The translations under genes and the position numbers were made by a program. This document shows, piece after piece, positions 10,460-18,759 of a stretch of 20,267 bases of DNA (positions are counted from its first letter, which is position 1; the number at the start of each line of letters is the position of its first letter). The notes beneath the pieces are model-generated. The model saw only the letters and a list, made by a program, of their open reading frames with translations, ran no database searches and was not told the DNA's origin. Source of the DNA: Candidatus Nanohalobium sp. (GTDB lineage Archaea > Nanohalarchaeota > Nanosalinia > Nanosalinales > Nanosalinaceae); NCBI GenBank assembly GCA_042216335.1, contig JBDGTY010000026.1:23409-43675 (forward strand), in the 5' to 3' direction.

Positions 10460-11086
10460 TTACTCTTCCTGCATCTCCTTGACCTTCTTCATCCTGAATG
10501 TCTCTTCCCTCGCCCTTTCCTGGAGCTGCTGGGATACTTCATCCAGGGCGTCGCTCATCTCGGGTATGACCTTGTGCTCCAGTGCGTTGACCCTTCTCTT
10601 CGTCTTCTCTATCTCGTTCAGAAGCTTGAGGACCTTGGTCTGTGTCTCGGCCGCGTCCACGATCTTCTCAAGAAGTTCCTCGTATTTGTCGGCGGTCGAG
10701 TCGACCCTGGAGGATGTGGAGCTTATTCCGTACTGCCTGTCAAGCACTTCTCTCCGGACCTCCTCTGACTCGATCTCCGGGACGACCACGCCCATGATGT
10801 TCTGGGCCTCTGTATCAAGACCGGTCTCCTGCTCCTCCGCGATGGCGTTAGCCCTGAGAGAATCCTCACCGTCGTAGATCTTCGCCAGCATCAGTTTGAG
10901 ACGTGCCTGACTATACAGATCGGCGAGTTCCTGGTTGACCTCCTGAGCATCGTCGATTACCTCCATGAACTCGTGTATAAGGCCGTCCCTCTTCTTCTCA
11001 AGGATCTCATGGCCGTTCTCCGCCAGTTCGATCCTCTCCTTCAAACGGAGCTCCTCACTTCTTGTAGGTTTTACGTCCTGTGCCAT
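10460..11086 (-). CDS. atpD: A/V-type ATP synthase subunit D
   Basis: VKPTRSEELRLKERIELAENGHEILEKKRDGL...NIMGVVVP...EIEKTKRRVNALEHKVIP; SD GGAGGTG. Confidence 0.96.
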   Translation of the reverse strand: MAQDVKPTRSEELRLKERIELAENGHEILEKKRDGLIHEFMEVIDDAQEVNQELADLYSQARLKLMLAKIYDGEDSLRANAIAEEQETGLDTEAQNIMGVVVPEIESEEVRREVLDRQYGISSTSSRVDSTADKYEELLEKIVDAAETQTKVLKLLNEIEKTKRRVNALEHKVIPEMSDALDEVSQQLQERAREETFRMKKVKEMQEE

Positions 11087-11430
11087 CAGTTGACACCTCC
11101 TCGTCCACTATCCTCGCTGTACCACGAGACTAGGTCTCCTTCAAAAGTTTCTTTCCTGGCATGAAGATAGTTTGCCATTTTTGTGAAAAAGTCATCGCCT
11201 TCTACCAGTTTTTCTCGGACTTCCATCTCGTAAGTTGCATTCTCATAAATCTGAATTGAGACACTGAGCCCAGCATCTCCTGATACCTCCTCTACTCGCT
11301 CAACATCTTCATATCGTTCTTCTGCTTCCAGTATCTCCCTGGCTCTGTCGGCACTGATCTCTCTTTCATGAGTATGAAGAGGAGGGAAGATACGTTCTAC
11401 AGAAGCGCTGGTGGCTGTGCCTCCTCCCAT
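11086..11430 (-). CDS. Hypothetical acidic protein located between atpB and atpD
   Basis: The ORF fills the whole B-D gap. Likely start is ATG 11430 with SD GGTGAG in the end of atpB (the track uses GTG 11439). Its stop overlaps the atpD start (TGATG). Confidence 0.7.
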   Translation of the reverse strand: MGGGTATSASVERIFPPLHTHEREISADRAREILEAEERYEDVERVEEVSGDAGLSVSIQIYENATYEMEVREKLVEGDDFFTKMANYLHARKETFEGDLVSWYSEDSGRGGVN

Positions 11431-11431
11431 T

Positions 11432-12808
11432 TTACTCACCTGTGCCCAGGTACTTTTCCTGTAGTTCGTTGTCGATCCTGGTGAGTTCTCCTTCCGGTAC
11501 TACCTCGAGCAGGTCCCAGGCGAGGTCGAGCGAGTCGTCGATATCTCTGTTCTCTCTCCATCCCTGGTCGATGAACTCGGACTCGAACTTCCGGGCGAAC
11601 TCGAGGATCTTCCTGTCCCTGTCACTCAGTGCGTCCTCTCCAACGATGGAGACGAGGTCTCTGAGGTCCTCTCCTTCGGCGTACATCGCGTACATCTGGT
11701 CGGACAGGTCCGGGTGGTCCTCTCTTGTGAATCCTTCACCGATCCCGTTGTCCTCCAGTCTGGAAAGACTTGGAAGTACATCTACAGGCGGGTTGTAGCC
11801 CTGGTTGTTGAGGTCTCTGTCAACCACGATCTGTCCCTCTGTAATATATCCTGTGAGGTCAGGGATCGGGTGTGTCTTGTCGTCGTTAGGCATCGTCAGG
11901 ATCGGGATCTGCGTCACCGAACCTTCACGGCCTTCGATAATCCCCGCGCGTTCGTAGAGCTGTGCCAGATCCGTGTACATGTATCCCGGATAACCTCTTC
12001 TACCAGGTACTTCCTCTCTTGCCGCGGAGACCTCACGGAGGGCGTTGCAGTAGTTTGTCATGTCTGTCATGATGACAAGTACTTCGTAACCTTTCTCGTA
12101 TGCAAGGTACTCTGCCGTCGTCAAAGCCATCCTCGGCGTGATAATCCTTTCCGGTGCAGGGTCGGAGGCCTTGTTCAGGAATACTACTGAGCGCTCAAGG
12201 GCTCCTGTCTCCCTGAACTCCTCGATGAACTCCTGGGACTCTTCCTCCGTGATTCCCATTCCTGCGAATACTACTGCGAACTCCTCATCATCGCCCTGGA
12301 TATCCGCCTGACGGGCGATCTGCATTGAGAGTTCGTTGTGCGGAAGACCTGAACCTGAGAAGATCGGCAGCTTCTGCCCACGGACCAGTGTGTTCATTAC
12401 GTCGATGCTGGAGATACCTGTCTGGATGAAATCCTCAGGAAGCTCTCTCGAGTATGGATTGATGGCCTCTCCTATGATGTCCCTTTCCTCGTCCGGGATG
12501 ATCTCCGGGCCGTCGTCTATAGGATTCCCAGTACCGTCGAGAATCCTTCCGAGAAGGTCTTCCGTCACCGGCATCTTGACGTTCTGATCGAGGAAGCGTA
12601 CCTTTGCGTCTCTACCGACTCCGGTAGTCTCCTCGTAAAGCTGGATAATAACGACATCCTTCGAGGTCTCAAGGACCTCTCCTCTCTTGACTTCGCCGTC
12701 CGGAGTCTCAACCTCTACAATGTCTCCATAGGCGATGTCTTCGGTTTTCTCCACGAAAACAAGTGGGTCCTTAACTTCGTTGATCGTCTGGTATTCTTGT
12801 TGTGTCAT
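11432..12808 (-). CDS. atpB: A/V-type ATP synthase subunit B
   Basis: [68 protein letters not shown]. Confidence 0.98.
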
Positions 12809-12820
12809 TCTTAACCACCT

Positions 12821-14548
12821 CTACTGCTCGACTACCTCTTCGAACTCGTCTTGCATCTGCTTTTGAATCTCCTGCTTGAGTTCGAGGTAGTCCTCCGAGG
12901 TCTGGAGTTCTGCGATCCGGTTCTTGGAGTCGAGCGCGATGATGTCTTCTACCATCGCTCCGTCTTCCAGTGCATCGTAGGCCTCGTCAGCCCACTCCAG
13001 CACGAGGTCCAGTATCTGGTAGGTTTTGTCCGGGCTGCTGTACTGGTCGACGGGGTGGAAGGCGTTCTGCTGGAGGAAGAACTTCTTGACCATCGTCGCG
13101 ACCTCCAGAGTCAGTCTTTCCCTATCAGGCAATGCGTCCTTTCCTACGAGCTGGACCGTCTCCTGGAGATCTCCGTCCTTTTGCAGGATGTCCCGGGCTC
13201 TCTGGATCTTCTCCGGCCATTCGTCCTCTACTTCCTCCTGGAAGTAGTCGGCCAGTTTCTCGCTGTATCCTGAGTAGCTGTCGTCCCAGTTGATAGCCGG
13301 AAAGTGCCTCTTCTCTGCCAGGCTGGCGTCCAGCGCCCAGAAGTTCTCAACAACTCTCAACGTGTTCTGGGTTACAGGCTCCGAGAAGTCTCCTCCCGGA
13401 GGACTAACTGCACCGATGATGGAGACTGATCCCGGGTCTTCGTCTGCGAGAGGCTGTACCCTTCCTGCCCTCTCATAGAACTCTGCAAGTCTTGAGGAGA
13501 GGTATGCCGGGTAACCTCTCTCACCGGGCATTTCTTCCAGTCTCGCTGAGACTTCACGCATAGCTTCTGCCCATCGGCTTGTCGAGTCTGCCATCAGTGC
13601 AACGTCGAGTCCCATGTCCCTGAAGTACTCTGCGATTGTTACTCCTGTGTAGATGGATGCTTCTCTTGCTGCTACAGGCATGTTTGACGTGTTTGCGATA
13701 AGTACTGTTCTGTTTATGATTTTGTCGCCTGTCTGCGGGTCTTCGAGTTCCGGGAATTCTTCCAGTACTTCTGTCATCTCGTTTCCACGTTCTCCGCATC
13801 CAATGTAGACGATGATGTCTGCGTCGGAGAACTTAGCCAGGGATTGCTGTGTAACTGTTTTCCCTGAACCAAAAGGCCCTGGGATTGCTGCTGTTCCTCC
13901 CTTCGCGATCGGGAACATGCCGTCGAGTACTCTCTGTCCTGTGATAAGTGGTACTTCCGGCCTCATCTGTTCCTCTGCAGGTCTTGCGTCTCTGATCGGC
14001 CATTCCTGCCTCATGGATATCTCTTCCCCGTCTACTACTGCGACTGTTTCGTCCACGGTGAAGCTTCCTTCCTTGATCTCCTCTACTTCGCCTCCCTCGA
14101 TGTGTGGAGGAAGCAGGACTTTATGCTCTCCATAGCTGACCTCTGTCTTTCCCAATGCTTCCCCTGCTTCTATTTCGTCTCCCTCCTCGACCAGTGGTTC
14201 GAATTCGTATTCTTTTTCAGGGTCGATTCCCGGCGCTTCCTCTCCTCTCGAGATGAAGTCTCCACTCTGTTCCTCGAGCTGTGGAAGAGGTCTCTGTAGT
14301 CCGTCGTAGATGGAGCCGAGGAGGCCTGGCCCTAGCTCTACTGAGAGAGGCTGTTCTGTGTTTTCTACTGGTTCTCCTGGTTTTACTCCTGTTGTGTCTT
14401 CGTAGACCTGGATGTAGGCTTTGTCTCCCTCAATCTGGATGACCTCGCCCATCAGGCCCTCTTTACCGACAGATACAACGTCGTACATCTGCGGTTCGAG
14501 ATCGGTCGCGACCACGACCGGCCCTGCAACTTTGTAGATTTGTCCCAT
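12821..14548 (-). CDS. atpA: A/V-type ATP synthase subunit A (catalytic), no intein
   Basis: Walker [60 protein letters not shown]; 575 aa. Confidence 0.98.
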
Positions 14549-14600
14549 TCAAAAATCGCCTCCGCGATTTTCTGCAATCCGAGAAAATCCTTGATTTTCG
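14546..14600 (-). promoter_or_regulatory. Two-hairpin cis-regulatory RNA element, copy 1 (atpA leader)
   Basis: mRNA GAAAAUC-AAG-GAUUUUC-UCGGAUUGCAG-AAAAUCGC-GGAG-GCGAUUUU-UGA-AUG; 43/55 ungapped identity to 16830-16884. Confidence 0.75.
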
Positions 14601-14635
14601 GAAGCGTCTGTCTGCTGAAGATCTGCTTGTGCCAT
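14549..14635 (-). CDS. Putative leader peptide/uORF before atpA (28 aa, MAQADLQQTDASENQGFSRIAENRGGDF)
   Basis: SD AGGTGA at 14646-14651, ATG at 14635, and TGA at 14549-14551 directly abutting the atpA ATG in frame. Confidence 0.55.
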   Translation of the reverse strand: MAQADLQQTDASENQGFSRIAENRGGDF

Positions 14636-14672
14636 TTTTAATTTGTCACCTATAGTATGAATTTCCGAGCGG

Positions 14673-14981
14673 TCACGTGATGTCCGCTCCGATTGCTTTC
14701 TTGATTTTCTCCTGGAGCCGCTCGCTCTCTGCTGTCTCGCTGAGCGCCACAACTACAGGTTCGACCGAGTCTTCTACCTGATTACGGGTTCTTTTCGGAA
14801 GTTGTTCGAGGTCCGTTTCCTCTGCGACCAGGATCCCGATGTCGTCCCTTTCGACCAGTTCCAGGATCTTTTCCTCGTAGTTCTCCGGGTTGAAAGTTTT
14901 CTGGACTCCTGCCAGTTTGAATCCAAGCGTGAATTCCTCGTCACCGATAATCGCTATCTCTTTTTTCTTTTCTTCATTCAT
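14673..14981 (-). CDS. atpF: A/V-type ATP synthase subunit F
   Basis: EIAIIGDEEFTLGFKLAGV...DIGILV...IKKAIGADI; position between C and A. Confidence 0.95.
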   Translation of the reverse strand: MNEEKKKEIAIIGDEEFTLGFKLAGVQKTFNPENYEEKILELVERDDIGILVAEETDLEQLPKRTRNQVEDSVEPVVVALSETAESERLQEKIKKAIGADIT

Positions 14982-14991
14982 CTTCCTTCAC

Positions 14992-15987
14992 CTAGTTCGG
15001 AAGCACGAGTTGCTTCCTGATCGTGTCCTGATTTTGAATTCCTGTCTCCTTCGCCCTGAGAAGCATCCTCAGGTTCTTGACCTCGGTCATCTTCGCCACC
15101 ACGTATCCGAGGATGGAGGAAAGACTTAGGGGCTGCGTGTGGAGCATCCTCAGTGCGTTCTCCAGTCTGTGGACCTCAATCGCGTGCTCGACAGATTCGA
15201 TCTGTGGCTCTACCTCGAGACCCAGTTCGGAGATAACGTACTCCAGAGCATCCTCAAAGTCTCTGTTAATGACTTCCTCGACTTTTCTTCCGTTCTTCGA
15301 GGTCAGCAGTCTTTTCTCTATCTCGTCCTGTGGTATTTCGTATCTCTTCATCCTCAGCGCCATTTTCAGGTTTTCGTATTCGACTTCCTCAGCAACGAAG
15401 TCGCCCAGCGCCCCGTTTCCTACTTCTCTTGAAAGGGCGGTAAGTTCGTCGTAGTAGGCCTGGTCGAGGCCTGACTCGATCTCTGCTAGCGTCTCAGCAC
15501 CCTTGATGTACTCCTGATAGTCTACTTTTGAGTCTCTGAAAACTATAGCATCTTTTACCTGTTCAAACTCCATATCCTTCAGCTCCTCCAGTTTCTCCGG
15601 GCTGATACCGCCGACCGGTACAAGGAACTCTTCGAAGCTTTCCTTACCGGATTTCTTGGCTCGAAGTATCCTTTTCAGCGTAAGCACATCGTACTTCCTC
15701 AAGTATGTCTCTATAACTGTTTCAAGCTTTCCATCTGCCATCTCGACAAGATCTGACATCTCACGTGCCAGATTCTTAGCCAACGCCAGCTCAGCCAGCT
15801 GTACACCGTCGTACATAGATCCAAGCTTGTTGATATCCTCTTTATAGGCTCCTTCCTCCATCTTCCTGGAGATCTCATTCGGTCCCATCTTCAGAAAGTT
15901 CTCGTAGTCCGATGAGTCGTACAGCTTCGCCCTCTTTGCTGATACACGGGCGTACATGTAGGGATAGTCCTTCTGGATTTTAATCAT
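14992..15987 (-). CDS. atpC: A/V-type ATP synthase subunit C
   Basis: YPYMYARVSAKRAKL N-terminus, C-terminal GYVVAKMTEVKNLRMLLRAK, 331 aa, operon position. Confidence 0.93.
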   Translation of the reverse strand: MIKIQKDYPYMYARVSAKRAKLYDSSDYENFLKMGPNEISRKMEEGAYKEDINKLGSMYDGVQLAELALAKNLAREMSDLVEMADGKLETVIETYLRKYDVLTLKRILRAKKSGKESFEEFLVPVGGISPEKLEELKDMEFEQVKDAIVFRDSKVDYQEYIKGAETLAEIESGLDQAYYDELTALSREVGNGALGDFVAEEVEYENLKMALRMKRYEIPQDEIEKRLLTSKNGRKVEEVINRDFEDALEYVISELGLEVEPQIESVEHAIEVHRLENALRMLHTQPLSLSSILGYVVAKMTEVKNLRMLLRAKETGIQNQDTIRKQLVLPN

Positions 15988-16538
15988 TCCTCCACCTCGC
16001 CGAAGAGTTTGTCGGCTACTTCCTTCCTGAAGCGTGATTTCATGTCATCGATGATCTTGTCGACAGAGTAGTTCTTGCTTCTCTCTTCGTCTTCGGATAC
16101 AAGGATGAAGCCTTCGACATCTTTCTGCTCGAAGTCGACCTTCCTCTCATCTACTGCCTCTTTATACTCTTCAGCAGCCTGCACTTTTGCTACATCGAAC
16201 TCTGCCTCTTCCACAGCTTCTCTCACAAGTTTCTTTTTCTCATCGGTTGCAAGGTTCTGTATCTCTTCCTTGAAGTTCCGGAAGGCTTCCTGGATCTTCT
16301 CCTGCTTAGCGGCCAGTTTTTCCTGCCTGGCTTCCATCCTTGCGTTAGATACGACTTTCTTCCTCTCCGCTTCTTTTTCTTCCTCTATCTCTTCTCTTGC
16401 GTTTTCCTTGATTTCTTCTGCTTCTTCCTCTGCTTCTTCGAGGATTTCATTTGCTTCTCTCTGTGCTTCTTCCTCTATACTGTTTGCTTTTTCCCGTGCT
16501 TCCCTGAGGATGTCGTTTTTCACGTCTTGTAGTGCCAT
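15984..16538 (-). CDS. atpE: A/V-type ATP synthase subunit E
   Basis: MALQDVKNDILREA..., N-terminal charged coiled coil, C-terminal GFILVSED...NYSVD...EVADKLF; operon position. Confidence 0.92.
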   Translation of the reverse strand: MALQDVKNDILREAREKANSIEEEAQREANEILEEAEEEAEEIKENAREEIEEEKEAERKKVVSNARMEARQEKLAAKQEKIQEAFRNFKEEIQNLATDEKKKLVREAVEEAEFDVAKVQAAEEYKEAVDERKVDFEQKDVEGFILVSEDEERSKNYSVDKIIDDMKSRFRKEVADKLFGEVEE

Positions 16539-16575
16539 AATATCGTTTTCACGCCTTGATGTGTAGTATGTAGGA

Positions 16576-16597
16576 AAGGAGCCGTTGCCGGCTCCCT
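16576..16597 (-). terminator. GC-rich GNRA-capped hairpin between atpK and atpE (terminator/stabiliser-like)
   Basis: mRNA AG-GGAGCCG-GCAA-CGGCUCC-UUUCC: 7-bp perfect stem extendable to 9 bp, GCAA tetraloop, short U tract. Confidence 0.6.
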
Positions 16598-16610
16598 GTG
16601 AAAGTTTTTC

Positions 16611-16832
16611 TTAGATGAATCCCAGTGCAACCAGTGAGACAACCAGTCCGAAGATAATGATGGTCTCCGGGATAGCTGTCAAAATCAGGACGTTACCGAA
16701 TAGGCTGTCGTCTTCTGCGAGCGCTCCGACGCCAGCACTACCGATTTTGGCCTGTGCATAGGCCGTTCCGATAGCTGCGAAAGCTATCGCGATTCCTGCA
16801 CCGATTGATGGGAAAGCTCCGATTCCTGCCAT
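16611..16832 (-). CDS. atpK: A/V-type ATP synthase subunit K (proteolipid c), single hairpin
   Basis: 73 aa with two hydrophobic helices, AIGTAYAQAKIGSAGVGALAE and the catalytic Glu in AIPETIIIFG. Confidence 0.95.
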   Translation of the reverse strand: MAGIGAFPSIGAGIAIAFAAIGTAYAQAKIGSAGVGALAEDDSLFGNVLILTAIPETIIIFGLVVSLVALGFI

Positions 16833-16884
16833 TCAAAAATCACCTAGGTGATTTTCTGCATGATCAGAAACTCTTTGAGTTTCG
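16830..16884 (-). promoter_or_regulatory. Two-hairpin cis-regulatory RNA element, copy 2 (atpK leader)
   Basis: mRNA GAAACUC-AAA-GAGUUUC-UGAUCAUGCAG-AAAAUCAC-CUAG-GUGAUUUU-UGA-AUG; same geometry as copy 1 with compensatory changes in both stems. Confidence 0.75.
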
Positions 16885-16889
16885 TTCAT
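16833..16889 (-). CDS. Putative leader peptide/uORF before atpK (18 aa, MNETQRVSDHAENHLGDF)
   Basis: SD GAGGTGA at 16900-16906, ATG at 16889, and TGA at 16833-16835 directly abutting the atpK ATG in frame. Too short for the ORF track. Confidence 0.55.
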   Translation of the reverse strand: MNETQRVSDHAENHLGDF

Positions 16890-16917
16890 TGTGTGATTTT
16901 CACCTCAAAATACTGTT

Positions 16918-18759
16918 TTAACTGCGATTTGCTCCGAATGGAGCGTATTCTTTGCCGCCTCCCTCAAAGAACTTTCCGAACATCTCCACGTAGTGGAGTC
17001 GGATTCCCTGAAGGAAGCCTTCCATGATTTTGATGAACGTGTTGAAAACGTGCCCGATCACGAGGATCAATGTACCGAATACAATTCCCATAATTCCTCC
17101 TGTACCGAACGCTGTGTTGGCTATGCTGTTTACAACCGCTGCGAGTGCGACTGCCGCTACCGATACCCCGAAGATCCTGAGATAGGACAGGATGTTTGCG
17201 AGTAGTGACGGGATCTCTACCAGTCCCTCTACTCCTTCCCCAAGGTAGAGAAGCGGTACTGCGAGCGCCATCACCGGTAGCCCCGCCGTCGGGCTGACGA
17301 GGAGTGCTAGTGCTGCCCCTGCCTGGAGTACGTACCACGAACCTTTCTCAAGGAACGCCTCCTTGACGCCATGGTTGATGTACTCGTTGTAGAACCCGAT
17401 GCCGTATCCCAGATTGACGTGGAGTACTCCTATCAGTGCTGAGATTTTGAATACCTGACCCAGGTGCTCCGCCCTGTGGAACACAATCGGGATCTGTTTG
17501 AACAGATGAATACCTGTCACGTGCGCCAGCTCGCTGTGATGGCCGAATATGACGTAACCGAACGCGTCACCGAACAGAAGCCCAAAGAATATCGTGGCGA
17601 CGGATGCATACATCAATGACTTGAAGATCTCCGCGCCCTTCGGGAACATACGATAACCAGCGTAGAAAACCGCCAAGGTCGTCAAACCGTAACCTGCATC
17701 ACCGATCATGAATCCGAAGAACAGCGGGAACGTAAGCATCAGTACCGCCGACGGATCTAGTTCGTTATATCTCGGTACAGCCACGAGGTCCGTCAATGAC
17801 TCGAAAGGCTGCACCGCCCTATTATTTTCGTGTTTTACAGGAGGCTCTTCATCCTCTGCCTCCTCTCTCTGGACGTGGATATTCCCTTCTGCGACATCAG
17901 CCAGAGACTCCTCTACTTCACCGTACTTCTCTTCAGGAATCCATCCCTGGGCGATGAAAGCATGGTCGGTTGTCGCGAAGTTGATCGGTGCCTCCGCCTT
18001 CTCAACCTTCTCAGTCAGAAAGTCCTCGACGTAGAGGAGTTTAACCCTCCATTTCTCGGCCAGGTCCTTTCTGTCATTCTCGACCTGCTCAACCTCGTAT
18101 TCTATGCTTTCCTTCCTGTCATCTATCTCGCTGTAGATCTGCTCCATACTCTTGCTTCCGTCGACACCGGCTTCAGGCACGCGGTACTGCTCCTTCGACG
18201 CATCCTGGATAGCCCCCTCGACCTGACGGGACTTGTCGGAGGAGTAAACTACTGCTGTGGCCGACTCGCCCTCGAAAATCTCGAACCTGTCGGTCATGAC
18301 TTCGGAGCGGAAACTTTCGATGTCCAGCTTTCCCACCCAGACGCTCAATGCTTCAGACTCCTGGAGATCCCTGTACTCAAGTCCAGAACCTTTCAGCCTC
18401 TTGAAGAACTTTCTGTTATCTTTGATCTGTTCGAGCTCCCGCTCGTACTCTTCTTCCTCTGCGTCCAGAGACTCTACCTTCTCCGAGATTTCAGGGAACT
18501 TCTCCTGCATCTTCTCGATCGAGTATGTTTCCTTTTCCGCCTCTACTTCCGGCAGTTTGGACAGGAGCGACCTGACGTCAACAAGTAGTTCGGAGAGTTC
18601 CTCGGCCTCTTCTCCAGGACTTCCCGTCTCCAGTTCGCCATCGTACTGGCTGATATCCATGACTTCGAGCCTGTGAAGCTCTTCGATCACTGCTTCAAGG
18701 TTGTTCTTCGGTCCTGTGACCGATATCCTGGTCATCCGTGTAGGCCTGATCTTATTCAC
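16918..18759 (-). CDS. atpI: A/V-type ATP synthase subunit I (a)
   Basis: PRYNELDPS...TFPLFFGFMIGDAGYG, NILSYLRIFG with the essential Arg, LQGIRLHYVEMFGKFFEGGG. Confidence 0.96.
   Translation of the reverse strand: MNKIRPTRMTRISVTGPKNNLEAVIEELHRLEVMDISQYDGELETGSPGEEAEELSELLVDVRSLLSKLPEVEAEKETYSIEKMQEKFPEISEKVESLDAEEEEYERELEQIKDNRKFFKRLKGSGLEYRDLQESEALSVWVGKLDIESFRSEVMTDRFEIFEGESATAVVYSSDKSRQVEGAIQDASKEQYRVPEAGVDGSKSMEQIYSEIDDRKESIEYEVEQVENDRKDLAEKWRVKLLYVEDFLTEKVEKAEAPINFATTDHAFIAQGWIPEEKYGEVEESLADVAEGNIHVQREEAEDEEPPVKHENNRAVQPFESLTDLVAVPRYNELDPSAVLMLTFPLFFGFMIGDAGYGLTTLAVFYAGYRMFPKGAEIFKSLMYASVATIFFGLLFGDAFGYVIFGHHSELAHVTGIHLFKQIPIVFHRAEHLGQVFKISALIGVLHVNLGYGIGFYNEYINHGVKEAFLEKGSWYVLQAGAALALLVSPTAGLPVMALAVPLLYLGEGVEGLVEIPSLLANILSYLRIFGVSVAAVALAAVVNSIANTAFGTGGIMGIVFGTLILVIGHVFNTFIKIMEGFLQGIRLHYVEMFGKFFEGGGKEYAPFGANRS

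Follow-up and report, generated by a model that had tools for sequence, protein, structure and literature searches.

Leaders of atpA and atpK

The window, i.e., the whole stretch of DNA analyzed (20,267 nt), comes from Candidatus Nanohalobium sp. (GCA_042216335.1, contig JBDGTY010000026.1, positions 23,409–43,675). It carries two copies of a leader element, both on the minus strand, in front of atpA and atpK. The features, in window positions, are as follows.

12821..14548, minus: atpA, A-type ATPase catalytic subunit A, 575 aa (Pfam PF00006, PF22919, PF16886, PF02874)
14546..14551, minus: stop–start junction TGA-ATG (uORF stop, atpA start), read from the sequence
14551..14572, minus: hairpin 2 of the atpA copy, 9 bp, loop GGAG (fold, alignment)
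14583..14599, minus: hairpin 1 of the atpA copy, GAAAAUC-AAG-GAUUUUC (fold, covariation)
14549..14635, minus: atpA-leader uORF, 28 codons (MAQADLQQTDASENQGFSRIAENRGGDF) plus TGA, the stop adjoining the atpA ATG (TGAATG)
14646..14650, minus: SD1 (GGTGA) of the atpA-leader uORF (sequence; aligned with the normal atpA SD of element-free relatives)
14673..14981, minus: atpF, upstream neighbour of the atpA leader (Pfam PF01990), its stop 37 nt before ATG1
16611..16832, minus: atpK, c/proteolipid subunit, 73 aa (Pfam PF00137)
16830..16835, minus: stop–start junction TGA-ATG (uORF stop, atpK start), read from the sequence
16835..16856, minus: hairpin 2 of the atpK copy, 9 bp, loop CUAG (fold, alignment)
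16867..16883, minus: hairpin 1 of the atpK copy, GAAACUC-AAA-GAGUUUC (fold, alignment)
16833..16889, minus: atpK-leader uORF, 18 codons (MNETQRVSDHAENHLGDF) plus TGA, the stop adjoining the atpK ATG
16900..16906, minus: SD1 (GAGGTGA) of the atpK-leader uORF (aligned with the normal atpK SD of element-free relatives)
16918..18759, minus: atpI, upstream neighbour of the atpK leader (Pfam PF01496), its stop 28 nt before ATG1

The frame of the atpA-leader uORF can also be read from an upstream TTG, as ORF 14549..14752.

Realignment of 14600..14546 with 16884..16830 (both minus) is gapless and gives the same 43 identical bases of 55 as the sequence-only reading of this DNA, each copy terminating on the ATG that starts the AtpA or the AtpK ORF. 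The 12 differing bases all preserve the structure, as had been claimed: they comprise two compensatory pairs, at element positions 6/14 (A-U to C-G) and 36/43 (G-C to A-U), and eight unpaired bases, at positions 11 (loop 1), 20–24 (linker), and 38–39 (loop 2). The two leaders form the longest two-copy repeat of the window (64 nt, 77%), and first-order Markov simulations of the window (n = 12) reach at most 33–35 matches per 55 nt, against the 43 observed. Isolated 55-mers each fold into two hairpins, at −14.7 kcal/mol (z −1.7) and −16.5 kcal/mol (z −3.5); the minimum of the full 143-nt atpF–atpA spacer is a different, long-range fold, not the two-hairpin form (z −0.46).

Hairpin 2 had been described as burying the SD of the subunit gene. 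It does hold this SD, here SD2, but in the atpA copy GGAG sits in the loop and only the next bases lie in the 3' arm: SD2 (GGAGG, 14559–14563) extends across the loop to the 3' arm, of which it takes in the first base, and the final pair of the hairpin includes the T of the uORF stop codon. In the atpK copy, the loop and the 3' arm each contain half of SD2 (AGGUGA, 16840–16845). A further SD and ATG stand shortly ahead of hairpin 1 in each copy; the upstream ORF enclosing it had been overlooked, and makes relay, i.e., coupled, translation a likelier mechanism than structure-gated initiation. The SD1 and ATG1 of these uORFs are the normal SD and ATG of relatives, as seen at empty sites: in the same-genus genome (L052), the atpA spacer has 33 nt and ends ...ATACTATAGGTGACAAATTAAAC before ATG, while at atpK an example is L053, with ...TTTGAGGTGAAAACCACACA before ATG. 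Compared with such empty sites of relatives, the filled atpK site is an exact 57-nt insertion beside the ATG.

Distribution and covariation of the element

Covariance models were searched against the own genome at E ≤ 10 and 41 relatives at E ≤ 1 (R1), and against 70 genomes of the phylum at E ≤ 1e-4 (R2). The own genome (1.02 Mb) has approximately 15 copies, with 27 matches to R1; R1 matches 31 of the 41 relatives (G000 included) and 21 of 24 same-family genomes, and R2 matches 43 of the 70. A third copy of the own genome, 83% identical, precedes rpl21e and is the nearest own-genome relative of the atpA copy. Rfam gave no family matching the element, in agreement with the earlier remark that it is not a recognised one. 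The element is a multi-copy family of Nanohaloarchaeota, not an ATPase-specific one.

The two-hairpin structure is genuine and covaries, in support of the sequence-only reading. In 88 distinct copies, 96.8% of paired cells are complementary, compared to 82.0% in shuffled controls and at most 69% in slid ones; double changes occur at 15 of the 16 pairs, in 171 cells against 33.6 expected. Since these copies were picked by covariance models that reward pairing, the figures carry a selection bias, lessened, although not removed, by two controls: arms pair better within copies than between copies (permutation p < 0.0005), and 33 of 64 matches to an unbiased regular expression are complementary at both free positions, with about four expected. 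An alternative 2:3 pairing shows no co-selection. At the paired positions G-U (22) is no commoner than A-C (17; p = 0.52), hence the pairing cannot be credited to the sense RNA over DNA or the opposite strand.

At 71 of 80 distinct places the element ends where an ORF of 50 or more codons starts. A large number of randomly placed copies outside leaders had been named as an outcome that would count against a leader function; this applies only in part, as the copies are indeed many, but 71 of the 80 keep register with a start codon. Ribosomal-protein families account for 23 of 40 representative downstream proteins, the other downstream genes including initiation factors, RNA polymerase subunits, AtpB, CDC48, and others. 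Recurrent across several genera are S3, L21e, S24e, and atpA (four genomes each) and atpK (three). The module is also found in introns of tRNA-Arg(GCG), tRNA-Lys(UUU), and others.

Orthologous sites may be empty or filled. On a 30-genome tree, at least eight presence/absence changes are seen at atpA, where sister pairs differ and 15 of 30 relatives, the own sister genome among them, have a plain 22–40-nt SD–ATG spacer; the atpK two-hairpin form is seen in only three of 30. Tandem relays and nested four-hairpin variants preserve the open frame. Copies at the same gene are 70% identical, compared to 48% at adjacent third codon positions (39 of 41 pairs). Copies are equally alike within and between genomes (0.627 vs. 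0.626), hence there is no sign of recent copy bursts, and no co-distribution of transposases with the element was found.

Relay uORFs and competing explanations

Of the 71 start-adjoining places, 62 have an ATG just before hairpin 1, and the stop of the resulting uORF (median length 18 codons) is placed at −4 (18 cases), −1 (17), 0 (19), or +1 to +7 (8) nt from the main start, i.e., in 54 of 62 at one of the first three offsets. Frames with an ATG at most 15 nt before hairpin 1 are open throughout the element and stop at the junction in 56 of 59 cases; for frames lacking such an ATG this holds in only 39 of 154. The peptide is not conserved, as two frames over the same hairpin 1 read ENQRFS and KIKDFL. 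A match of at least 5 nt to GGAGGTGATC is present within 22 nt before the start in 65 of 71 places (control windows, 13%), and this SD2 is at least half paired in the minimum-energy fold in 49 of 69. From these features we infer translation of the uORFs.

We consider it fairly likely (probability about 0.6) that the elements are portable relay-uORF leader cassettes acting by translational coupling, rather than a specific regulator of atpA and atpK; the real gene probably receives its ribosomes by this relay, with no special regulation of ATP synthase. A cassette of some 55–90 nt would be placed directly on the start codon of a gene, so that translation from the original SD and ATG now enters a mini-ORF, usually of 17–19 codons, spanning hairpin 1, the linker, and hairpin 2, with its stop touching or overlapping a second start codon, that of the real gene. 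Hairpin 2 would bear the second SD, paired with an anti-SD-like 5' arm. A ribosome would initiate at SD1/ATG1, translate the uORF, melting hairpin 2, and terminate at the junction; reinitiation, or new subunit binding at the freed SD2, would follow on the real gene, and expression would thus pass through the insert by translational coupling. The uORF peptide itself would be of no relevance. In Haloferax volcanii, termination–reinitiation coupling was shown to be strict at −4/−1 overlaps and to fail at approximately 20 nt (PMC6728339, PMC10666635); passages of the review PMC12548453 describe an RNA-unfolding model of coupling and state that mycobacterial MIRUs, with a coupled ORF, "insert themselves at start codons". 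Gained and lost gene by gene, the cassette may be either merely tolerated, as proposed for MIRUs, or put to use by the host; the share of ribosomal-protein families among downstream proteins (23/40) weighs against mere tolerance.

The same bias is central to the strongest competing explanation, which we nevertheless regard as rather unlikely: a regulon-wide translational operator, with one trans-acting factor binding the hairpins, above all hairpin 1, which closely follows ATG1 and has a CUGG flank, and co-regulating the synthesis of ribosomal proteins, translation factors, and subunits of RNA polymerase and ATP synthase, as well as tRNA maturation via the intron copies. Functionally, this would resemble the eukaryotic 5'TOP regulon. 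The translation-machinery bias extends to aIF2gamma, SUI1, and a class-II aaRS; stem and linker sequences are conserved well beyond the needs of pairing, with A-U at pairs 8-35 and 52-80 in 87 of 88 rows; the element evolves more slowly than adjacent third codon positions (0.70 vs. 0.48 identity); the tRNA introns repeat the architecture in full, down to the linker ...CUG..ACGCAGAAA and the tail UUUCGAGUG; and within-genome homogenisation is absent. However, four same-family genomes (96%, 96%, 99%, and 79% complete) have no element at E ≤ 0.01, the number of matches per genome ranges from 0 to 42, and atpA shows the gains and losses given above (at least eight). Moreover, in G009 (L067) the hairpins have decayed and the uORF relay is retained, loops lack conservation, and no candidate binding protein was found.

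Near-perfect Watson–Crick stems with G-U about as frequent as A-C (22 vs. 17) would also suit a family of DNA palindromes, either a REP/MITE/PATE-like relic of the IS200/IS605 type or a recombination or protein-binding site, whose hairpins matter in single-stranded DNA, not in mRNA, the uORF being the price of tolerance. Many places give model matches on both strands, the module is also present outside leaders (introns, after stop codons, spacers), nested and tandem copies exist, and in G002 one copy precedes a Y1 transposase gene by about 90 nt. We consider this improbable: neither the Y1 transposase family (3 of 41 genomes) nor TnpB (above its cut-off in 10 of 41) tracks the element, only one of four tnpA loci has a copy, recent within-genome bursts are lacking, the only possible target duplication is ATG or AATG itself, and 17 viral contigs that match the core pattern contain no true copies.

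Less probable still is an intra-operon transcription attenuator or terminator, or an RNA-processing or stability element, formed by hairpins followed by U tracts. Each hairpin ends with U4–U5, a single such hairpin directly follows the atpI stop codon in some relatives, and the own-genome copy C50:11292 lies after a stop codon; most copies, however, have only T4, termination leaves the ATG1 register, the stop–start junction, and SD2 unexplained, and it would be harmful between the genes of tightly packed ribosomal-protein operons, where copies are found.

The sequence-only reading, a dedicated cis-regulatory mRNA structure tuning atpA and atpK initiation, e.g., for the subunit stoichiometry of the A-type ATP synthase, is largely refuted by the distribution, and we give it hardly any credence. 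Both copies do lie within the atp operon, before two subunits of special copy number, and atp-operon copies in other genomes precede atpK, atpA, atpB, atpF, and one more position; but most copies of the family precede non-ATPase genes, others lie inside tRNA introns, the nearest own-genome relative of the atpA copy belongs to rpl21e, 15 of 30 relatives have plain atpA spacers, and only three of 30 have the atpK form. Least credible is an intron-like insert cut from mRNA by the tRNA-splicing endonuclease: the two-hairpin architecture is common to the introns of tRNA-Arg(GCG), tRNA-Lys(UUU), and others, and excision of exactly 57 nt at atpK would restore the ancestral leader, but the tRNA modules are internal to much longer introns, away from splice sites, no bulge–helix–bulge was seen by eye at leader boundaries, and a spliced insert would need no conserved ATG1, open frame, SD2, or junction stop.

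Relation to known systems

Leader-peptide attenuators and autoregulatory leaders likewise place uORFs and hairpins before ribosomal-protein genes (Eckert and Weinberg, 2020, PMC7247131, in part); unlike these, the cassette lacks both co-selected 2:3 pairing and an Rfam match, and it cannot imitate the rRNA site of any single protein, as non-ribosomal genes and genes of at least 23 ribosomal-protein families all carry it upstream. The proposed relay cassettes also resemble synthetic bicistronic designs (PMC12548453, PMC5995908, bioRxiv 10.1101/2023.02.09.527918), in which a short leader cistron brings its own SD, contains a second SD towards its 3' end, and overlaps the target ATG with its stop, ribosome helicase activity clearing structure at the second RBS; however, the cassette is natural, repeated, and archaeal, and has the conserved hairpins that these designs avoid. 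Overlapping gene pairs share the stop–start geometries (ATGA/GTGA, TAATG/TGATG, TGAATG), an SD within the upstream ORF, and an inhibitory structure that covers the RBS of the second gene (Huber et al., 2019, PMC6728339; Huber et al., 2023, PMC10666635; PMC12548453), although here a mini-ORF borne by the repeat, its peptide not conserved, takes the place of an upstream gene.

Among repeats, the contact-regulated REP2 of Neisseria marks a co-regulated gene set, and upstream inverted-repeat elements of Borrelia are described as similar to it; REP2 also supplies a promoter and an ATG that is fused to the gene (PMC3184786), whereas the cassette lies within operons and has a separate mini-ORF ending at the gene start. 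MIRUs (mycobacterial interspersed repetitive units; Supply et al., 1997), as portrayed in PMC12548453 and PMC3184786, are short repeats of 40–100 bp; a genome has tens of them, located in polycistronic units between genes of the same direction, with orthologous sites empty or filled, tandem copies, an internal ORF with its stop coupled to the start codon that follows, and start-codon insertion with minimal effect on expression. The cassette differs in having no sequence relation to MIRUs and belonging to another domain of life, in its two strongly covarying A/U-rich hairpins, in the internal SD in hairpin 2, in a uORF that mostly starts from the former SD/ATG of the gene instead of overlapping the stop of the upstream gene, in its marked bias to ribosomal-protein and other core genes, and in its presence within tRNA introns. 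By analogy, the cassette is best read as an archaeal counterpart of mycobacterial MIRUs and neisserial REP2.

Copies in the ATPase operon and spread of the family

The A-type ATPase operon, as delimited by ORFs and Pfam, lies entirely on the minus strand and comprises atpH, I, K, E, C, F, A, B, an ORF of no assigned family, and D. Two copies of a two-hairpin element (hairpin 1, linker, hairpin 2) end on start codons here:

14600..14546, minus strand: copy ending on the ATG of atpA (atpF-atpA spacer, 124 nt)
16884..16830, minus strand: copy ending on the ATG of atpK (atpI-atpK spacer, 85 nt)
11086-11439, minus strand: ORF of 117 aa between atpB and atpD, no Pfam match at E ≤ 0.001

As the sequence-only reading had described, the two stretches align ungapped and are identical at 43/55 positions, and of their 12 differences, eight fall on loop or linker bases and the other four form two compensatory pairs, with A-U changed into C-G in hairpin 1 and G-C into A-U in hairpin 2; its supposition that no known RNA family is involved also agrees with Rfam 15, which yields no match in the whole window (cmscan, both strands, permissive filters, E ≤ 1). 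No other two-copy repeat of the window is longer than this pair, and 12 Markov simulations of the window reach no more than 33–35 matches per 55 nt. Folded in isolation, both 55-mers give two hairpins; the MFE fold of the full atpF-atpA spacer differs from the two-hairpin fold. A motif (A)TACT(A/T) or ATATTT is seen 2–6 nt 5' of the SD (14651-14660 and 16907-16915, minus strand) and almost every atpF-atpA and atpI-atpK spacer keeps it, as do most atp spacers in the loci L051–L080 of related genomes. The sole DNA data set found to contain the stretch is a salt-lake metagenome, and AtpA of the closest named genome, "Nanohaloarchaea archaeon SG9", is 82% identical.

DNA search of the own 1.02-Mb assembly reveals a third copy, 83% identical, directly 5' of rpl21e, in which the variable position of hairpin 1 is occupied by a pair type different from those of the other two copies. 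The covariance model built from the three copies (R1) has 27 matches in the own genome at E ≤ 10, and a broader model from 47 hits (R2) has 40 at E ≤ 1, with about 15 places in leader position: before atpK, atpA, L21e, RpoF, CDC48, L13, S28e, S4, RpoB, and S3, and also before ORFs read as L39e-, S11-, and S27e-like. R1 at E ≤ 1 matches 31/41 relatives (the own genome included) and 21/24 same-family genomes; R2 at E ≤ 1e-4 matches 43/70 genomes of the phylum, with 35/49 in the own family, 2/10 and 5/8 in two other families, and 0/1 in each of two more. Four own-family genomes (96%, 96%, 99%, and 79% complete) have no R2 match at E ≤ 0.01.

The census of R2 matches at E ≤ 1e-4 comprises 80 distinct places in 71 loci of 25 genomes. 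In 71/80 places the element end coincides with an ORF start (ATG in 53, GTG in 18), counting ORFs of 50 codons or more; the nine others include tRNA-intron copies, the leading members of tandems, and a copy situated about 90 nt 5' of a Y1 transposase gene. The downstream proteins form 46 similarity groups, 40 of which were scanned against Pfam by one representative each, the remaining six being atpA and atpK (Pfam-identified separately), two short doubtful ORFs, and two groups read as L10e-like and P0-like. Ribosomal-protein families account for 23/40 representatives; 14 have other Pfam assignments (aIF2gamma, SUI1, class-II aaRS core, Rpb4, Rpb2, Spt4, AtpB, transketolase-like E1-beta, DnaJ, CDC48, PAPS-reductase-like, topoisomerase VI A subunit, OB-fold protein, and OapC), and three have no hit. 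By group size, Pfam-verified ribosomal-protein genes are downstream of 36/71 places, many of them inside large ribosomal-protein operons.

The sequence-only reading is thus retained in part. A real, selected structure at the ribosome-binding site stands; its scope does not, because the element is not ATPase-specific and a short upstream ORF (uORF) running through it had been overlooked. A device dedicated to atpA and atpK is not what is seen, as the same element precedes 23 ribosomal-protein families and other genes. The further copies that it proposed to seek are many; in the census of 25 genomes they end on an ORF start in most places (71/80) and elsewhere in 9/80. So wide a range of genes, with 14 other Pfam-assigned representatives besides the 23 ribosomal-protein families, also rules out a ribosomal-protein autoregulatory leader, that is, a gene- or operon-specific mimic of one rRNA site.

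Related modules are found in tRNA genes. ARAGORN predicts introns of 26–213 nt in 22/33 own-genome tRNA genes (e.g., C16:37642-37873, C35:16971-17179, and C53:22014-22300). The introns for tRNA-Arg(GCG) and Lys(UUU) contain the two-hairpin module, complete with the linker and tail of the leader copies, and several others contain single hairpins of the same type; by manual reading, the intron copies have neither the uORF start codon (ATG1) nor an SD in hairpin 2. The own-genome introns look like modular hairpin strings, several of which share a 5' block (...gggactggttacgctc...), and hairpins of the GAAAATC/GATTTTC type occur in about eight of them. Clusters of two to three family hairpins are also seen outside predicted tRNA genes and ORF starts, at C48:1163-1308 and C40:3171-3233 of the own genome, the latter between two intron-bearing tRNA genes; these may be an unrecognised non-coding RNA or mis-predicted tRNA structure. 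A module common to mRNA leaders and tRNA introns would point to a shared trans-factor, or to a novel, transposase-free movement of RNA-structured modules.

Pairing and constraint on copies

The covarying two-hairpin structure claimed from the two window copies is borne out across the family. Standard pairs make up 96.8% of the cells in 88 distinct rows, compared with 82.0% in shuffles; both sides have changed in 15/16 pairs, and such double changes number 171 cells where 33.6 are expected; and sliding the partner by 1–3 columns leaves at most 69% paired. The 47-row set gives a similar pairing result. Since both row sets were picked by models that reward pairing, regex and permutation controls were added. 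Complementarity at both free positions is seen for 33/64 plus-strand matches to GAANNTC-N3-9-GANNTTC in the own genome, with about four expected, and the arms of both hairpins pair much better within a copy than between copies (1:2 and 3:4, permutation p < 0.0005). The alternative 2:3 pairing, which would join the downstream arm of hairpin 1 to the upstream arm of hairpin 2, shows no such preference (–3.93 kcal/mol within vs. –4.28 between copies, permutation p = 0.97), hence an attenuator-type 1:2/2:3/3:4 switch is rejected. At paired positions, G-U (22) is no commoner than A-C (17), so the pairing cannot be attributed to sense RNA over DNA.

Several genes have a copy in more than one genus (S3, L21e, S24e, and atpA in four genomes each, atpK in three). 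Copies at the same gene are about 70% identical, compared with 48% at third codon positions of the adjacent gene, the element being the more conserved in 39/41 pairs; any two family copies are about 63% identical. Likeness within a genome (0.627) equals that across genomes (0.626), and the nearest neighbour is a same-genome copy in 0/35 cases; hence there have been no recent within-genome bursts, and all copies are near one consensus. Such closeness could stem from selection acting copy by copy or from movement from one genome to another.

The uORF and the proposed relay

The atpA copy is preceded by GGTGA, 10 nt, and an ATG that opens a predicted uORF of 28 codons; the atpK copy, by GAGGTGA, 10 nt, and the ATG of a predicted 18-codon uORF, this ATG1 being 4 nt from hairpin 1. 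In both cases the TGA stop of the uORF directly adjoins the main ATG. A uORF is found by a strict rule in 62/71 start-codon places, with a median length of 18 codons (range 14–35), and the stop-to-start offset is –4 in 18, –1 in 17, 0 in 19, and +1 to +7 in eight of them, so that –4, –1, and 0 together account for 54/62. Among frames with an ATG at most 15 nt before hairpin 1, 56/59 are open across the element and stop at the junction with the main gene, compared with 39/154 frames without such an ATG; by this comparison, openness of the frame is conserved. The main gene's SD (SD2) lies half in the loop and half in the 3' arm of hairpin 2, hence the 5' arm, as read from the sequence, resembles the 16S rRNA 3' end. 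A match of at least 5 nt to GGAGGTGATC is present in 65/71 places and in 13% of control windows.

The uORF peptide shows a different behaviour. Hairpin 1 is read in two frames, giving ...ENQRFSG... in some copies and ...KIKDFL... in others, which means that there is no conservation of the peptide; together with the 10/12 differences between the window copies at codon positions 1 or 2 (manual reading), this rules out a functional conserved peptide. Judged from the aligned copies, the structure is evidently selected, and the uORF peptide is not.

Some copies depart from the common plan. Four-hairpin variants, with an extra hairpin pair (about 51 nt) nested in the linker, are seen in three genomes (L180 of G009, before S24e; L174 of G002, before SUI1; L184 of G021, before an OapC-like gene), and the uORF is still open there, at 35 codons (...GLKGLSGL.Q.RNL.GFG...). 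A hairpin-1-type palindrome, GAAGATC/GATCTTC, at C35:32768-32826 (minus strand) of the own genome lies in a frame open into an ORF of 717–747 codons, and this module may be fused in frame to a protein N-terminus.

The element is, with a probability of roughly 60%, a portable relay-uORF cassette. Ribosomes would enter at SD1/ATG1, the ribosome finishing the uORF would open hairpin 2, and it would then be passed to the main start, helped by SD2. The mechanism, all steps of which we infer, is proposed since the element geometry matches experimentally shown translational coupling: in Haloferax volcanii, termination-reinitiation at –4/–1 overlaps is strict and is lost at about 20 nt, according to the relevant parts of PMC6728339 and PMC10666635, and in the other accepted model, as outlined in part of PMC12548453, the upstream ribosome unmasks a structured RBS.

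The chief rival takes the same cassette as a host-used, regulon-wide translational operator. The concentration of copies on ribosomal-protein and core genes speaks for it; the four own-family genomes with no R2 match and the at least eight presence/absence changes at atpA (see below) speak against it, and we regard it as unlikely. More doubtful still is a specific form of regulation, in which the cassette would be the cis-element of a "translation-apparatus regulon" of Nanohaloarchaeota, with one hairpin-binding factor gating uORF initiation on dozens of mRNAs as well as the processing of intron-bearing pre-tRNAs in which these two hairpins recur. The mRNAs concerned would be those for ribosomal proteins, aIF2gamma, SUI1, aEF-2-like GTPases, RpoB/RpoF/Spt4, and ATP synthase A/B/K, and the regulon, if true, would be a single growth/dormancy switch for host-dependent cells, comparable in archaea to the 5'TOP system of eukaryotes.

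Insertion-like behaviour and likeness to known systems

Forms of the atpF-atpA spacer were classed by hand in 30 genomes of the family. A plain spacer of 22–40 nt, '...ATACTA..GGTGA..N8|ATG', is present in 15/30, and a two-hairpin or hairpin-1-only form in 5/30; most of the remaining spacers have a short uORF, an internal SD, a junction stop, and decayed hairpins. The sister genome has an empty site at atpA, and the own SD1/ATG1 aligns with the ordinary SD/ATG of an element-less genome of the same genus. At atpK, filled and empty sites differ by exactly 57 nt adjoining the ATG. Presence or absence at atpA requires at least eight changes on a tree of AtpC and the first 330 AtpA residues, with differences inside four well-supported sister groups. 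The element has no end repeats other than ATG/AATG itself. The atpI-atpK spacers of five relatives' loci (L052, L056, L064, L067, and L078) have no cassette; one hairpin of the same type (e.g., CAGAAAATCC...GGATTTTCAAAA) stands just past the atpI stop, with an ordinary atpK SD-ATG downstream.

In one genus, a two-step arrangement is observed, where uORF1 ends on the ATG of uORF2, and uORF2 on the ATG of atpA (L056:2848-2996 of genome G041 and the L067 spacer of G009). The hairpins of these tandem cassettes are intact in L056 and decayed in L067, yet both uORFs, the SDs, and the junctions are intact there. Such spacers suggest that, after insertion, the putative relay is the part that must be retained.

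The own atpA leader is identical at 83/90 nt to that of a G041-like genome of another genus, while atpF is only 71% identical. For the first 180 nt of atpA, identity is 88% with L056 and 77% with the sister genome. Lateral exchange of the leader with a G041-like donor is thereby suggested, though not conclusively, since atpA is too conserved and, over the remainder of the gene too, the sister fails to be the best match.

The Y1 transposase family PF01797 is present in 3/41 genomes and PF07282 above the cut-off in 10/41, neither correlating with the element, and a copy is seen at just 1/4 tnpA loci; hence, a hairpin element derived from IS200/IS605 (PATE/MITE) is not supported. That one copy (L213:1346-1416, contig C11 of G002) lies inside a longer inverted repeat, GGGCGGT...ACCGCC, about 90 nt 5' of the Y1 (IS200/IS605-type) transposase gene, with a TnpB-like gene next after the latter; at the three remaining tnpA loci, no copy is present. 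A viral carrier is likewise dismissed, as 17 IMG/VR contigs with GATTTTCTGN{4,7}GCAGAAAAYC are about the number expected by chance by a rough estimate, and R2 matches 0/17 at E ≤ 0.01.

If the relay reading is true, a family of inserts that are "translationally transparent" occupies start codons among the most conserved nanohaloarchaeal genes. Such inserts escape standard annotation, as the uORFs have 14–35 codons and the spacers resemble unexplained gaps in tight operons; it would be wrong to take long spacers, e.g., those of atpF-atpA (124 nt) and atpI-atpK (85 nt), for gene-specific promoters or regulators. The copies would also provide dozens of natural variants for studying archaeal termination-reinitiation and RBS unmasking. 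Literature searches on Nanohaloarchaea tRNA introns and Nanohaloarchaeota uORFs turned up no account of the element, and the consulted sections of Eckert & Weinberg (2020; PMC7247131) mention neither "nanohalo" nor "uORF".

The closest likeness, in working and not in homology (which would not be expected between domains of life), is to mycobacterial interspersed repetitive units (MIRUs), for which the relevant section of PMC3184786 reports empty and filled sites and overlapping ORFs. The present element is likewise a short repeat with many copies per genome; it has a uORF in 62/71 places, with an offset of –4, –1, or 0 in 54/62 and with 56/59 ATG-bearing frames open to the junction; and orthologous sites are both empty and filled, as at atpA (15/30 plain, 5/30 hairpin forms). 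Neisserial REP2 repeats, as characterized in the same section, precede co-regulated genes and combine two stem-loops with an RBS and an ATG; the present element, immediately 5' of ORFs, likewise has two internal stem-loops, an RBS, and an ATG. The synthetic bicistronic design (BCD) follows the same logic as the cassette, going by its outline in PMC12548453. Unlike all three, the present family has no transposase that tracks it, is archaeal, is concentrated on ribosomal-protein and core genes, shares its module with tRNA introns, and is built of two A/U-rich hairpins that covary strongly, the second of them holding the SD. It would, if the relay reading is true, be a natural archaeal case of a bicistronic relay, of which the examples known so far come from mycobacterial MIRUs and synthetic biology.
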